Shown here piece after piece: positions 7,838 to 39,986 of a stretch of DNA of 64,000 bases. Made by a program: the position numbers and the translations under genes. The stretch lies in the sequence record PZ445487.1, one strand, 5' to 3'. The notes beneath the pieces were generated by a model, which made no database searches, was not told the origin of the DNA, and saw only the letters and a list, made by a program, of their open reading frames with translations. This DNA comes from a phage. Positions within the stretch are counted from its first letter, which is position 1. Every line of letters begins with the position of its first letter.

Positions 7838-8797
7838 ATGTCCTATATTCTTCATATCGAGTCCGGCCTGAAATTTGAAATTGATGGTAAAACCGCTGCT
7901 GAACTTCAAGCAGAAATTAAAGGTGCAGACCTTATCATTGGCAATGTAACATTACGCCGCATGATGGAAGGCGTCCTTCAGTCAGCCAATGGCTTTGAAC
8001 TCATCGAAGGTCTGAGCCAGGAAGAGAAAGAAGAGACTCTCGAAGCTCTTGACCGCGCTGAAGCCGAAAAAGTTAAACCGACCGAAGATGCGGGGGTTAA
8101 ACAGGGCGACGGTGAATCAAATCCGGTGATTGACGCCGAAGAAACGGTTGGGCAACCTGTCGGTGATCAAAATTCCCAGACCGTCGAAGACGGTTCTCTT
8201 GAAGTCAACAAAGACGGTTCCATTTCCCTGGTAGTTGAAGGCGAAGAAGTTCTTGACGAAGAAGCGCAAGCCCGTGCTGAAGAAGTTCGCCGTCGTATGC
8301 TGGGCACAACCGTTGCTGAAGCAATCGCCGACGTTGAAAATCCGAAGGATGATCAGGCTTTAGCGAACGCGAAGGCGGTTCTGGCCAAGAAATCTTCTGA
8401 AATGCGCCCTGCATCTTCTACCGAAGAACGCAAGCGTCGTCATAACAAGCGTGAAGAAATGGTTGAAGCGGCTCGCGCATCCAATTATGGTCCGATCCTT
8501 GCTGCGGTTGAATCGGGGGTTGTGCCTGGGGTTTATTTGAGCTATGTGAATCCGGATATGCGCTGGTTCCAGTTCCCTGTTACCGAATTGGCAGATGAAG
8601 CCAATCCACACGCCCGCACCAATACTTATGTTGATCTGGCGCCGATCGTTTCCGGCGGCTGGGGGTTCAGTCTGTATGTGAATGGTAAATCATTCACCAA
8701 ACGCCAGAAAATCAAAGAAACTGATGCCGAATCTCTGGTGAAAGCAATCAATGAATGGTTACCACAGGCGTTGGCCGAAGCGAAAGCTGCTGCGTAA
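7838..8797 (+). CDS. hypothetical acidic protein
   Basis: 319-aa ORF with acidic low-complexity centre. Confidence 0.5.
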   Translation: MSYILHIESGLKFEIDGKTAAELQAEIKGADLIIGNVTLRRMMEGVLQSANGFELIEGLSQEEKEETLEALDRAEAEKVKPTEDAGVKQGDGESNPVIDAEETVGQPVGDQNSQTVEDGSLEVNKDGSISLVVEGEEVLDEEAQARAEEVRRRMLGTTVAEAIADVENPKDDQALANAKAVLAKKSSEMRPASSTEERKRRHNKREEMVEAARASNYGPILAAVESGVVPGVYLSYVNPDMRWFQFPVTELADEANPHARTNTYVDLAPIVSGGWGFSLYVNGKSFTKRQKIKETDAESLVKAINEWLPQALAEAKAAA

Positions 8798-32039: not shown

Positions 32040-32376
32040 CAGTTTCCCCTGCTTTCTCTAAAAGGAGTTTCAAAGGATATGTCCCACAAGCGGTGGCATA
32101 CTCGACTTTGAAATATGAATTATCGTTCATGGCGAAATTTCGATGTGGGAAATATTCCCCGTCATCCAACCCGCCTAATCCCCCGCCGACGCGATATTGT
32201 TTCAACTCAACTTCGCCGCCATAACGGAGTTGGGCATATAGGCCGATAGGAGCGCGAACGTAATGCTCCAGCCATACCCAATTTCCGTCGTGTAAACGTG
32301 TAGGGATAAATGCAAAACGCACCTTGGGATGAAGAACGGCTTTGGCGAGCATCTCTTCTGTTATTTCACGCTTCAT
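32032..32376 (-). CDS. hypothetical protein
   Basis: 114-aa ORF. Confidence 0.4.
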   Translation of the reverse strand: MKREITEEMLAKAVLHPKVRFAFIPTRLHDGNWVWLEHYVRAPIGLYAQLRYGGEVELKQYRVGGGLGGLDDGEYFPHRNFAMNDNSYFKVEYATACGTYPLKLLLEKAGETDV

Positions 32377-32993
32377 CCAATACCTTCCTCTTCGATGATA
32401 TCTTCTTCACTAGCGACGACAGAGATTCCGTAGTCCACCATCTGGGAAAGTTCTTGTAAATCTTGTTCAAACCCGTCACCCTGTCGGATATAAAAGACGG
32501 GTACGACACGACGCCTGGTATCTTCGAAGATAGTCTCCGCGATTTTATTAATCTGACTCACTACATGAAACAGTTTCAAACCACCGATGCCACAGCCGAT
32601 GGCGGGTAAACCAACATAGACTGTTTCGTCAGTTTTTGCCTCAATGATATCGTGAACTTGTTCAAACATAATCTGAACTGAACTGATAATGGAAGGCATG
32701 CGTGCGTTAGGACCAGGGTAGAACTGAGTATACAAATTGAATCCCCAGACACCAGTGTCATGATCAAACGCATAGGACATGTTCCCCAAACGTTGTTCCG
32801 GACCACGTTCATCTAATTGGTCGGCTCGGTAAATTTCTGGGAAATCTAATCGAACATGGTTGGCGATACCTGCGCCCATCACAGACCAACAATTTGCTCC
32901 ATGAGCGAAAGCATTGATGAGATTAAAACTCGTAGCGGCTTTCAGTAAATCGCCGTTTGTGATAACATATGTGGTCATGCGTAACGTCTCCAT
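32373..32993 (-). CDS. macro-domain protein (ADP-ribose binding/processing)
   Basis: YVITNGDLL...INAFAHGANCWSVMGAGIA matches macro-domain N-terminal signature; GLPAIGCGIGG second glycine-rich motif. Confidence 0.55.
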   Translation of the reverse strand: METLRMTTYVITNGDLLKAATSFNLINAFAHGANCWSVMGAGIANHVRLDFPEIYRADQLDERGPEQRLGNMSYAFDHDTGVWGFNLYTQFYPGPNARMPSIISSVQIMFEQVHDIIEAKTDETVYVGLPAIGCGIGGLKLFHVVSQINKIAETIFEDTRRRVVPVFYIRQGDGFEQDLQELSQMVDYGISVVASEEDIIEEEGIG

Positions 32994-37779: not shown

Positions 37780-37828
37780 CGGCCTATCCCGTCAATGGTA
37801 AACACACAAGATTATGTATGGGGTTGGC

Positions 37829-38407
37829 TTATAGACCAAATTTACCACGCCACTTTTCAACTTTGTGTTCTATGGCATGTTCTACTTTAACGATCGTGTT
37901 GATATGGTTTTGATTATACCCACACGCCAATTTGGCAGTATTGCGTATCAGATTTGAAACCAGGTCCACCATATTATCTTCTGAACGTTGAGGTTGGTTC
38001 AGTAAACGAGTGATGCGGCCTTTGTAATGATTAACCATCGCAAGATATTTGTCTATAGTTTCAACACCACTGCAGAACCAATAATCCTCCAACGTATGTT
38101 GGCTGAGATCAGTTGTGTGATTGGCCGTAGCCAAAGCAAACACCATGGAGTCAAAGATTTCTTCTTTGGTCATAGACCCATGTTGTTGAACTTGTTGATA
38201 ATCCACAACATATAATAGATCCAGAGCCGAGATGATAACGTCCGCCACTTCACCGTTCAGGGGTTCGGATGCAGCGATTCCATAAAGCACATCTGATAGT
38301 TCACAAGACTCTTCCACGAGTTTGCAATATACAAACACAGGAGAACGATTAGGATCGCGCTGGCTGAGTTCATATGATGTGTTGAAGATAATTTTTAGAA
38401 AATTCAT
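37829..38407 (-). CDS. MazG-like nucleotide pyrophosphohydrolase
   Basis: KLVEESCELSDVL and GEVADVIISALDLL match MazG EExxE / E-x-x-D helices. Confidence 0.45.
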   Translation of the reverse strand: MNFLKIIFNTSYELSQRDPNRSPVFVYCKLVEESCELSDVLYGIAASEPLNGEVADVIISALDLLYVVDYQQVQQHGSMTKEEIFDSMVFALATANHTTDLSQHTLEDYWFCSGVETIDKYLAMVNHYKGRITRLLNQPQRSEDNMVDLVSNLIRNTAKLACGYNQNHINTIVKVEHAIEHKVEKWRGKFGL

Positions 38408-38420
38408 TTCAAATATCCTT

Positions 38421-38903
38421 CTAGACGGAAGCGGTTAATATGCTGTATGATAAAATCCATAGAGTTTTGAAAACTGTATTTCCCTGATGCTCATATGCAT
38501 GAATAAGGGGAAGACGGCTGTGGGCCAATTGGAATCTCAACTTGGATGGCATTGTCAGCAATTTTTGACTCGTCGCTGCGATAATGTCTCGTTTAAATTT
38601 GGGATCATCAGGGGACAATACAACGATGCGTGACTTGGCCAGGGTTTGTCCAAATTGCTTGGCGTCGTTCCCGTAAAGACTACGCAAGTCGTCGTGGCGA
38701 TATTTTAGCCAATACCAGTAGCCTTCTATTGAGTTGAAATTACCATCAACAGTATCCATGGGATGGTATGCAAAATGGGAAAGGAATCTGCCTAGTTCTG
38801 TGCGACTTCGACTGTATATGTTGTAATGGGTCTTACCTTCACTATCCGGCGTCATACGTTCTTTTGGAACATTGAGTAATGGGAGCATGATATAGGGTCT
38901 CAA
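38421..38903 (-). CDS. NADAR-like (YbiA/DUF1768-like) domain protein
   Basis: YSRSRTELGRFLSHFAY and NSIEGYWYWLKY resemble NADAR FSNF and E-x-Y-x-x-x-K motifs; tentative. Confidence 0.3.
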   Translation of the reverse strand: MRPYIMLPLLNVPKERMTPDSEGKTHYNIYSRSRTELGRFLSHFAYHPMDTVDGNFNSIEGYWYWLKYRHDDLRSLYGNDAKQFGQTLAKSRIVVLSPDDPKFKRDIIAATSQKLLTMPSKLRFQLAHSRLPLIHAYEHQGNTVFKTLWILSYSILTASV

Positions 38904-38929
38904 ATCAAAATTGCTGTGTGTGTGTTAAA

Positions 38930-39121
38930 TCAGATCTTTTTGTACGCTTTCAAAGCACTAATAACCGAGACGCCGCCAAATAGAACTAACAATATGAATC
39001 GTTCCATCCTGAAATCAGGAAGGGAAAGCAGTCCCACAAGGCTGTCTAAAGCAATCATGAACGTTACTCCAGTCAGCATGCCCAACTTAAAGGAGTTGGA
39101 ACCTCTTTTGCAACGTAGCAT
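38930..39121 (-). CDS. small membrane protein (2 TM)
   Basis: 63-aa ORF with GGAGGTGA RBS filling gap 38904-39167. Confidence 0.45.
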   Translation of the reverse strand: MLRCKRGSNSFKLGMLTGVTFMIALDSLVGLLSLPDFRMERFILLVLFGGVSVISALKAYKKI

Positions 39122-39167
39122 AAATCACCTCCGATTCAAATGGGGAGTTCTCTCCCCACACAGATAT

Positions 39168-39677
39168 CTAGCCCAGAAACACTACTAAAGTCAAATTTGT
39201 GAGACTGGTCCGAGCATCCTGCAACATTTCACGGGCAGCGGCTAAACGTTTTACATCATGTAGAGTGTCAGAGAACACGATTATGTTAGCCTTATCGATC
39301 CTGGTCCCCATGAAATGGGTGATTGTCGTCGTGCTCTCTTTCTTGTCGACATCAGGGATAAGTAATTCTTCGCCCGTCTGAGGGTTGCGGGAAGGATAGA
39401 AGAATGCATCACGTTCACGAGAAGTATGGAAGACGCCAAACACATATGCGTCGTTTTCGACCTGAAACTTTTTAGAAAGTAGTTTCTTCAGAGCGGCTGT
39501 ATGTCCGGTCTGGCGGAGCATTCTGTAGTAGAGCATGTTGCCGGAGCAAATAGGGTCTATCACTCCCCTAATTTGACGTTCCTTTTGTATCTCATACGCA
39601 TCTGCCACAAGCTGCTGGATCATATCGACATGGGCATTCATGGAGATTTCTATTTTACGTTTGATCATAGATTGCAT
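39168..39677 (-). CDS. hypothetical protein
   Basis: 169-aa ORF. Confidence 0.4.
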   Translation of the reverse strand: MQSMIKRKIEISMNAHVDMIQQLVADAYEIQKERQIRGVIDPICSGNMLYYRMLRQTGHTAALKKLLSKKFQVENDAYVFGVFHTSRERDAFFYPSRNPQTGEELLIPDVDKKESTTTITHFMGTRIDKANIIVFSDTLHDVKRLAAAREMLQDARTSLTNLTLVVFLG

Positions 39678-39764
39678 TTGGTATATCCTCAGTTAGGTTC
39701 CGCTCATGGGGAACGGGTCCATTATACACCCAATGCTGGAAATGAAAAAGAGGCCGAAGCCTCT

Positions 39765-39986
39765 TTAATCGTCGTATTGGCCTGTCCTGAAATTCCATTT
39801 TCGCGCCTTGGATAAATCCAAATCTTTGAAAATGCTGCCAAAGATCTTTTTAAAATCAGACTCTTCTTCAAGATCTTTTGGTTTTTTGACAGGCTCCTTA
39901 ACCATACCGCCTTCGGGTTTCCCCACATCGGCGGTCGTGGTTGCCGGAGCAGAAGAGTCTTCAAGGAAATCCTGGAAGCTCTTCAT
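39765..39986 (-). CDS. small acidic/basic protein
   Basis: 73-aa ORF. Confidence 0.3.
   Translation of the reverse strand: MKSFQDFLEDSSAPATTTADVGKPEGGMVKEPVKKPKDLEEESDFKKIFGSIFKDLDLSKARKWNFRTGQYDD

Follow-up and report, generated by a model that had tools for sequence, protein, structure and literature searches.

What does the product of orf012 (CBA120_gp010) do? This small gene lies on the minus strand of the 64,000-nucleotide stretch of phage DNA analyzed in the current study (record PZ445487.1, referred to below as the window), and it is annotated as coding for a hypothetical protein in phage CBA120 and in every related record listed. Bases 37800-39700 of the window were 100% identical to JN593240/NC_016570, which identifies this part as Escherichia phage CBA120 (Kuttervirus, Ackermannviridae). 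The coding sequence as recorded (38421..38888, minus strand) specifies 155 amino acids from an ATG. A preliminary description, made from the sequence of the window alone, had tentatively assigned this open reading frame (ORF) to the NADAR (YbiA-like) proteins. According to the present results, the orf012 product almost certainly has the NADAR fold and belongs to the histidine type known from phages, as a divergent relative of the T4 protein gp30.3.

T4 gp30.3 has been characterized as AdfN (anti-DarT factor NADAR), a NADAR DNA ADP-ribosylglycohydrolase (Johannesman et al. 2025; PMC11825919). AdfN strips the ADP-ribose added by DarT1 from DNA, and is both necessary and sufficient for the DarTG1 resistance of T-even phages; its full anti-DarTG1 activity was lost or reduced by the substitutions E36A and K43A and by truncation of the C-terminus (PMC11825919). 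Three unrelated phage NADARs likewise counter DarTG1 and are guanine-specific (PMC11825919, PMC11125620). The preliminary description mentioned neither this characterized homologue nor the frameshift at the 3' end of orf012 that is described below.

The relationship between the two families was revealed by profile-profile comparison with hhalign, using alignments of 147 Cba120-type, 108 gp30.3-type and 42 YbiA sequences. The gp30.3-type set (PF08010 present in 108/108 members, PF08719 also in some) was obtained from a search of a large protein collection, because a scan of viral_contigs for gp30.3 relatives gave only seven near-identical T4-type copies, which were too few. The Cba120-type profile matched gp30.3 at 97.3% (E 1.9e-11, 110 columns) and YbiA at 93.2% (E 2.8e-7), while the calibration pair, gp30.3 versus YbiA, gave 98.0% (E 2.3e-13). 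Reversed-alignment decoys compared with the same Cba120-type profile reached only 0.9% for gp30.3 (E 0.064) and 5.9% for YbiA (E 0.0064). Together with the structural results given below, these matches bear out the NADAR/YbiA-like assignment of the preliminary description. The Cba120 and gp30.3 families were also linked by reciprocal searches with hidden Markov models (best E about 1e-9, on small local sets) and by BLASTP, in which orf012 matched T4 gp30.3 at E 0.001 in the region from the SNF motif to AK..G (about 30% similarity over 57 residues). Moreover, both proteins were placed in the same PHROG, phrog_652 (annotated as function unknown), with E-values of 6.9e-50 for orf012 and 9.2e-51 for T4 gp30.3.

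An AlphaFold2 model of the orf012 protein as recorded, built from the family alignment, had a predicted local distance difference test score (pLDDT) of 87 and a predicted template modelling score (pTM) of 0.81, and it showed the alpha-helical core with two small flanking beta-sheets that is typical of the YbiA-like fold. In a Foldseek search of the PDB the first match of this model was E. coli YbiA (2b3w; probability 1.00, template modelling score 0.58, 144 columns) and the other of the top two was the NADAR protein of G. lovleyi (8bat; probability 0.94), the remaining matches being noise. The structural comparison to YbiA, which the preliminary description had suggested as a check, therefore led to NADAR proteins in both leading positions, at a sequence identity between orf012 and the NADAR structures of 16-21%. 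The model of an intact orthologue (P0001) was of higher quality (pLDDT 96.8, pTM 0.90), and when compared with a viral structure library it matched uncharacterized phage proteins of the same family, followed by many annotated NADARs of phages and giant viruses. Judged from these models, the assignment to the NADAR fold is secure.

The outcome was negative for the second check suggested in the preliminary description, an HMMER search against Pfam DUF1768/NADAR. No Pfam model, including NADAR and Phage_30_3, matched the orf012 protein even at E<=10, and scans with NCBIfam and PADLOC also gave no match. The protein did not reach the gathering score of PF08719 (35.1 bits) or the cut-off of PF08010 Phage_30_3 (36 bits), the latter being a model against which T4 gp30.3 scores 237.5 bits. 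When 43 relatives were scanned singly, 1/43 matched Pfam NADAR at a sub-threshold 20.5 bits (cut-off 35.1), and 8/43 gave weak matches to Phage_30_3 (best E 0.0026). Searches of the PDB with the orf012 sequence (phmmer) and with the family profile (hmmsearch) returned no NADAR chain; matches to 'Endolysin A', Rrp17 and ATG12 (E 0.17-1.1) were dismissed as noise.

The family to which orf012 belongs is large. Sixty homologues were found in the large protein collection by sequence search, and at least 1,836 at E<=0.01 by profile search, nearly all of them 140-165 amino acids in length. A NADAR or gp30.3 Pfam domain was precomputed for none of the homologues listed (PF08719 in 0 of about 160), and a Pfam domain of any kind for only four of them, while a few members of the family bear the JGI name 'YbiA (DUF1768 family)'. 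A second profile search of the same collection gave only same-family proteins among the 120 listed, and no bridge to annotated NADARs.

Both motifs named in the preliminary description, FLSHFAY and E-G-Y-W-Y-W-L-K, were found in the protein; they correspond to the 'SNF' and Glu-x6-Lys motifs of NADAR proteins, and are conserved in the homologues. In what follows the residues are numbered from the TTG at which the mechanical ORF opens, so that the ATG at 38888 encodes M6. FLSHFAY (residues 40-46; 38766..38786, minus strand) is the NADAR 'SNF' motif, which reads SHF in the CBA120 subgroup, and was matched by hhalign to LSNFAQ of T4 AdfN and FSNFAA of YbiA. Among the Cba120-type homologues F44 was kept in 146/147, position 42 was S or T in 147/147, and position 43 was N in 119/147 and H in 28/147. 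EGYWYWLK (residues 60-67; 38703..38726, minus strand) is the catalytic Glu-x6-Lys motif, containing the catalytic Glu, E60 (codon 38724-38726, minus strand), and seven residues past it the Lys, K67 (codon 38703-38705, minus strand). H135 (codon 38499..38501, minus strand) takes the position of the charged residue of the last beta-strand that defines NADAR subfamilies, and was located within a strand in the models of both the CBA120 protein as recorded and the intact orthologue.

The hhalign alignments paired E60 with T4 E36 and YbiA E48, K67 with T4 K43 and YbiA K55, and H135 with T4 H123. The catalytic Glu, by which the distal ribose is coordinated (Pn E43, C7 E88, T4 E36, YbiA E48) is therefore present in orf012 as E60, and the Lys at Glu+7 (Pn K50, C7 K95, T4 K43, YbiA K55) as K67. 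The Glu was found in every member of the three alignments (147/147 Cba120 type, 108/108 gp30.3 type, 42/42 YbiA), as was the residue of the last strand, i.e. H135 in 147/147, H123 in 108/108 and E125 in 42/42. The position seven residues past the Glu was more variable, with K43 kept in 104/108 of the gp30.3 type and K55 in 42/42 of YbiA, and K or R found in only 25/147 of the Cba120 type. These 25 sequences comprise the CBA120 protein plus its nearest relatives (P0001-P0024), and no others; in the remaining 122/147 members of the clade (P0025-P0159) the Lys was replaced, mostly by Ser or Gly. K82 and K114 were, like E60 and H135, invariant in the 147 homologues, and G61, Y62, W63, Y64 and W65 were invariant in a 43-sequence alignment of the family. 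This alignment is strongly conserved, with the consensus INIYSKG.TELGRFLSNF...DG.FNSIEGYWYWL...AKQ.GR...K...LPL.HYY. At the level of the sequence, then, the CBA120 protein carries the complete Glu/Lys/His triad of the T4-AdfN type, including the His of the phage type.

According to two reports (PMC11125620, PMC11543638), the residue of the last strand is Glu in the YbiA subfamily, Asp in BC4488/DarG1 and His in phage NADARs. Membership of orf012 in the YbiA subfamily was rejected, as this position holds His and not Glu. A further difference of E. coli YbiA (PF08719; 2b3w) is its pair of conserved residues, D130 and W133. Because the hhalign alignment extends no further than YbiA residue 119, nothing in orf012 is aligned with E125, D130 or W133, each of which is found in 42/42 YbiA sequences. 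YbiA also differs in its biological setting, being a bacterial housekeeping or damage-control enzyme encoded in a LexA-controlled operon. Membership in the BC4488 subfamily, which comprises DarG1 (G. lovleyi NADAR 8bat; E. coli C7 NADAR), was rejected as well, because His was found in 147/147 members in place of the Asp and no DarT1 gene adjoins orf012. Proteins of the DarG1 kind have, unlike orf012, a basic N-terminal beta-beta-alpha extension, and they are encoded beside DarT1, whereas the region around orf012 has no annotated toxin gene. Since no toxin gene adjoins it, orf012 can be regarded as an 'orphan' in the phage genome.

The closest characterized counterpart is T4 AdfN. The two phage proteins are alike in being small (about 150-160 amino acids) and free-standing, in having the NADAR fold and in their assignment to PHROG 652, and both combine the Glu-x6-Lys motif with a His in the last strand (E60/K67/H135 in orf012, E36/K43/H123 in T4). 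A helix forms the C-terminus of both, and T4 AdfN depends on it for full activity. The differences are nevertheless considerable: the motif EGYWYWL of orf012 is EGFLQGC in T4 and its SHF is SNF in T4, orf012 is extended at its N-terminus by a conserved stretch of about 17 residues, and PF08010 does not detect it. The neighboring genes differ too, being MazG and topoisomerase genes in the case of orf012 but ligase and 30.2 in T4.

The C-terminal helix is the point at which the recorded CBA120 gene departs from its own relatives. At 38482..38484 the window reads CCC on the plus strand (GGG in the coding direction), one base fewer than the GGGG present in the DNA of EP75 and SS9. Because of this missing G, residues 142-160 of orf012 are frameshift products, and the native tail of 25 residues (a strand and a helix) is replaced in the CBA120 record by 19 out-of-frame residues. 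The native C-terminal segment, KYSFQNSMDFIIQHINRFRLEGYLK followed by a TGA stop, can be translated from the other frame (38404..38481, minus strand), where it corresponds to the last beta-strand and the C-terminal helix, and KYSFQNSMDFIIQHINRFRLEGYLK matches the C-terminus of the orf012 family. The TGA and the ATG of the downstream gene orf013 overlap as ATGA, and in EP75 the coding sequence overlaps the downstream gene by 4 nucleotides. Intact proteins of 161 amino acids are encoded by EP75, SS9 and SeKF_64, with EP75 being 100% identical to CBA120 up to the indel. Of the 528 phage records that matched, the two of CBA120 (one and the same sequence) were the only ones to align past residue 147, the point at which the other close relatives listed stop. 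In the model of intact P0001 the segment was predicted as a strand (137-140) and a helix (145-156) with a pLDDT of about 95, and the tail of the CBA120 protein as recorded had a pLDDT of about 50-70. An intact C-terminal helix is thus present in EP75, SS9, SeKF_64 and P0001, but not in the CBA120 record.

A similar lesion is known from RB69, in which a natural one-base insertion in adfN removes the last 15 residues, i.e. the terminal helix, and this phage is sensitive to DarTG1 (PMC11825919). It is possible, if doubtful, that CBA120 orf012 is likewise a genuine frameshift mutant, a natural hypomorph or pseudogene that has lost full activity. The segment lost is a confidently predicted strand and helix in the intact orthologue, and both the RB69 lesion and the engineered truncation of T4 AdfN reduce activity. 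In favour of a real mutation, three close relatives carry GGGG at the site of the recorded GGG, and only CBA120 reads past residue 147; against it, the protein before the indel is identical to that of EP75 and shows no sign of decay. Furthermore, both CBA120 records represent one sequence, and an independent CBA120 sequence for comparison was not found. Homopolymer length errors are a typical error of 454 pyrosequencing. As this is the method by which the CBA120 genome was sequenced (PMC3184105), the frameshift is plausibly an artefact of the record. A real loss of the G would probably leave CBA120 with a weakened protein, comparable to that of RB69, whereas in the case of a 454 homopolymer miscall CBA120 has in reality the 161 amino acid form of EP75.

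From the precedents of T4, Bas32 and Bas60, and from the conservation of the residues described above, it can be proposed with moderate confidence that orf012 serves to remove guanine-linked ADP-ribose from phage DNA as a protection against DarT1-type defence, acting as an orphan antitoxin. AdfN(Bas32) and AdfN(Bas60) (Markadamsvirinae, Vequintavirinae) are, like orf012, orphan phage NADARs outside the T-even group, and since they counter DarTG1 (PMC11825919), the strategy recurs across phage lineages. They are reported by the same authors to cluster with archaeal and bacterial NADARs and not with the gp30.3 type (PMC11825919). In a host with a DarT1-type toxin, the guanines of phage single-stranded DNA would be ADP-ribosylated and replication would be blocked. 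The orf012 enzyme would then bind the ADP-ribose, with E60 holding the distal ribose, K67 contacting the pyrophosphate, and H135 in the last beta-strands providing the third catalytic group. Cleavage of the N-glycosidic bond between ribose and guanine would restore unmodified DNA, and in effect the protein would act as an antitoxin without a toxin partner. Expression would be expected from the early or middle block of replication genes, on the strand that also carries rIIA/B, topoisomerase II and MazG. The conservation of the gene, and its intact state in close relatives, speak for this role.

Several observations weigh against it. The function of the orf012 clade is a prediction throughout. 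Because orf012 is undetected by Pfam (even at E<=10), NCBIfam and PADLOC, it appears to represent a divergent branch, and its specificity could differ from that of AdfN. Outside the CBA120 subgroup, which keeps it, the Lys at Glu+7 is replaced in 122/147 members, so that the chemistry may not be uniform in the clade. The allele recorded for CBA120 is without the native terminal strand and helix. In addition, T4 AdfN failed to neutralize DarT1 outside T-even infection (PMC11825919, PMC11125620), and thus activity in vitro would be no guarantee of a counter-defence role.

The same observations could be accounted for by a NADAR enzyme with another substrate, namely a different ADP-ribose adduct produced by ADP-ribosyltransferase (ART) toxins of the host, e.g. 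ADP-ribosylated cytidine, RNA or another base. NADARs that reverse cytidine ADP-ribosylation, and ART-NADAR pairs such as YarT-YbiA, are described in two reports (PMC12945103, PMC11125620), and NADAR domains are highly substrate-specific in cells (PMC11125620). The Pfam models do not detect this divergent clade, most of whose members have lost the canonical Lys. However, every phage NADAR tested, from three independent lineages, acts on the DarT1/guanine adduct and not on thymidine adducts (PMC11825919), and the full Glu/Lys/His set of the T4 type is kept in the CBA120 subgroup, so a different adduct appears rather unlikely for orf012. For the clade as a whole, it seems quite unlikely that it forms a functionally distinct NADAR branch, acting on an ADP-ribose adduct or N-glycosidic substrate other than the guanine-ADP-ribose of AdfN/DarG1. 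This idea is based on the Lys being mostly Ser or Gly in the clade while EGYWYW, K82, K114 and the His are kept. If it were true, it would point to an ADP-ribosyltransferase defence of the host for which a matched phage countermeasure has so far been lacking, and CBA120, in a linked reading, would be a natural frameshift mutant and hence sensitive to that defence.

A YbiA-like metabolite N-glycosidase, acting on reactive intermediates of the riboflavin pathway or on those of nucleotides, or in hydroxymethyl-dU (hmdU) hypermodification together with the MazG-like pyrophosphatase, is improbable. It would suit the annotation of E. coli YbiA as an N-glycosidase, described as acting on riboflavin intermediates (PMC11543638), the use of hmdU by ViI-like phages (PMC3184105), and the position of the gene in a block that holds nucleotide-metabolism genes, where in relatives its stop overlaps the start of the MazG-like gene. 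It does not suit the His of the phage type in place of the Glu of YbiA, the lack of aligned counterparts of YbiA E125, D130 and W133, or a profile to which AdfN is nearer than YbiA. Members of the family are also known from jumbo phages of Vibrio, Erwinia and Serratia and from Pseudomonas phages, with many genome types among them. This wide distribution, across many phage groups not related to one another, was taken as an argument against a role in DNA hypermodification of the ViI type, which was rejected as improbable. That the likeness to NADAR proteins is due to chance, or exists at the level of the fold without common ancestry or function, is hardly credible: the missing matches in Pfam, NCBIfam and PADLOC, the failure of the PDB sequence and profile searches to find a NADAR chain, and the identity of only 16-21% to the NADAR structures would agree with it, but the decoys came nowhere near the hhalign scores of the real alignments. 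Removal of guanine-linked ADP-ribose accordingly stays the preferred reading of the function of orf012.

The preliminary description had suggested that a macro-domain gene and orf012 together would give the phage two distinct ADP-ribose-removing activities. The gene meant is most likely orf021 (CBA120_gp019, Tk.4-like; 32373..32978, minus strand), a DarG-like macrodomain protein without the DarT-binding domain, as indicated by NCBIfam, PADLOC and PDB matches. The NCBIfam model antitoxin_DarG matched orf021 at E 2.3e-9 (model positions 3-136 of 338) and the PADLOC model DarG at E 2.6e-10 (positions 4-136 of 329), in both cases in the macrodomain part only, and the PDB entries 5m3i, 7omu and 5m31, which are macro domain or Appr-1-p processing domain proteins, were matched at E 1e-4 to 3e-3. 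The Pfam Macro model gave no significant match to orf021 (E 0.22), and neither a phmmer search seeded with YmdB (using an approximate query sequence) nor a scan of all window ORFs for a GGG motif found a macro-domain gene. The suggestion of two activities is thus reasonable, and as a prediction from the sequence matches it holds.

The two predicted activities would map onto the two subtypes of DarTG, with guanine assigned to the NADAR protein and thymine to the macrodomain protein. AdfM of phage PhiKZ is a DarG2-like phage macrodomain that counters DarTG2 (PMC13309987). Like AdfM, orf021 is an orphan phage DarG-like macrodomain, matching the macrodomain part of the DarG models, and it can be considered a candidate AdfM-like anti-DarTG2 factor. 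AdfM differs from orf012 in its fold and in its substrate, thymidine-ADP-ribose. A Tk.4 gene is present in T4 too. Since T4 without adfA and adfN is still resistant to DarTG2 (PMC11825919), Tk.4 is an obvious candidate for this resistance in T4 as well.

The genes around orf012 are found on the same strand as rIIA/rIIB, and include the histone-like orf010, orf011, the MazG-like orf013 and the topoisomerase II genes. Downstream of orf012 lies orf013 (37829..38407, minus strand), annotated in RefSeq as a MazG-like pyrophosphatase and matching PHROG 1247 at E 3e-40. On the other side are orf011 (38930..39121), coding for a protein of 63 amino acids of unknown function, and orf010 (39168..39677). 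None of the three had a Pfam match at E<=0.01, and orf013, orf010 and orf011 were recognized only by PHROGs (1247, 4164 and 4835), indicating that the block from orf013 over orf012 to orf010 is poorly covered by general domain libraries. A consensus scan detected a terminator-like hairpin followed by a promoter-like sequence (TTTTCA-16-TATAAT) upstream of orf010 (39721..39766, minus strand), which may mark the start of a transcription unit orf010-orf011-orf012-orf013. The support for this is weak, as the eight promoter-like sites in the region did not exceed the shuffled expectation (5.6 +/- 2.9).

With regard to the limits of the gene, the preliminary description had given an ORF at 38421-38903, and a minus-strand ORF of 160 codons that opens with a TTG at 38903 is indeed present there. 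The ORF itself thus stood, but neither of its ends did: the TTG is only the mechanical start, and the 3' end at 38421 lies in the out-of-frame part. The ATG at 38888 is the RefSeq start of orf012, and the equivalent ATG opens the intact orthologues in EP75, SS9, SeKF_64 and P0001. By this comparison the ATG at 38888 is likely to be the true start, and the five-codon TTG extension (38889..38903, minus strand) is probably not translated. For the SS9 orthologue (NC_049458, 705..1061) RefSeq gives only 118 amino acids, from an internal start, despite the intact ORF of 161 amino acids, which is an annotation inconsistency among near-identical genomes.

The concept of phage NADARs of the His type, the function of AdfN and the PHROG grouping were already known, and what is new is the divergent, unannotated member. 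A literature search found no link of NADAR or AdfN to Kuttervirus or Ackermannviridae, although the clade may already figure in a published tree; the main text of the AdfN paper (PMC11825919) does not mention Kuttervirus proteins. The results provide a testable function for a gene that is called hypothetical in every Kuttervirus/Ackermannviridae record listed, and the same function can be proposed for a large metagenomic family that Pfam, NCBIfam and PADLOC did not recognize in the members scanned. They would extend the idea of counter-defence by an orphan antitoxin of the AdfN kind from T-even, T5-like and rV5-like phages to the ViI-like phages, which are widely used in biocontrol and typing of Salmonella and E. 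coli O157:H7. With orf012 and orf021, such phages may carry erasers for DNA ADP-ribosylation by both DarT1 (guanine) and DarT2 (thymine). The frameshift is either an error of the record that is worth correcting or a natural hypomorph. In the latter case CBA120, unlike EP75, would be predicted to be sensitive to DarTG1, which bears on host range when phages are chosen for applications.

In the T4 record an internal out-of-frame ORF, 30.3' (8403..8630), is annotated inside adfN. Nothing like it was seen within the CBA120 gene, where only short mechanical ORFs of the opposite strand came up (38487..38633, plus strand, 48 amino acids).

Fusions with additional domains were seen in a few family members, i.e. 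P0078 and P0135 (with PF14216/DUF4326) and P0138 (with PF00136, a DNA polymerase B fragment). The protein A0A173GE06 of Erwinia phage RAY (293 amino acids, 'DprA-like'), from the jumbo phages, is a family member fused to a DprA-like N-terminal part, and the PHROG 652 profile spans 296 positions. Possibly, the fusions point to partners of the family that are associated with DNA.

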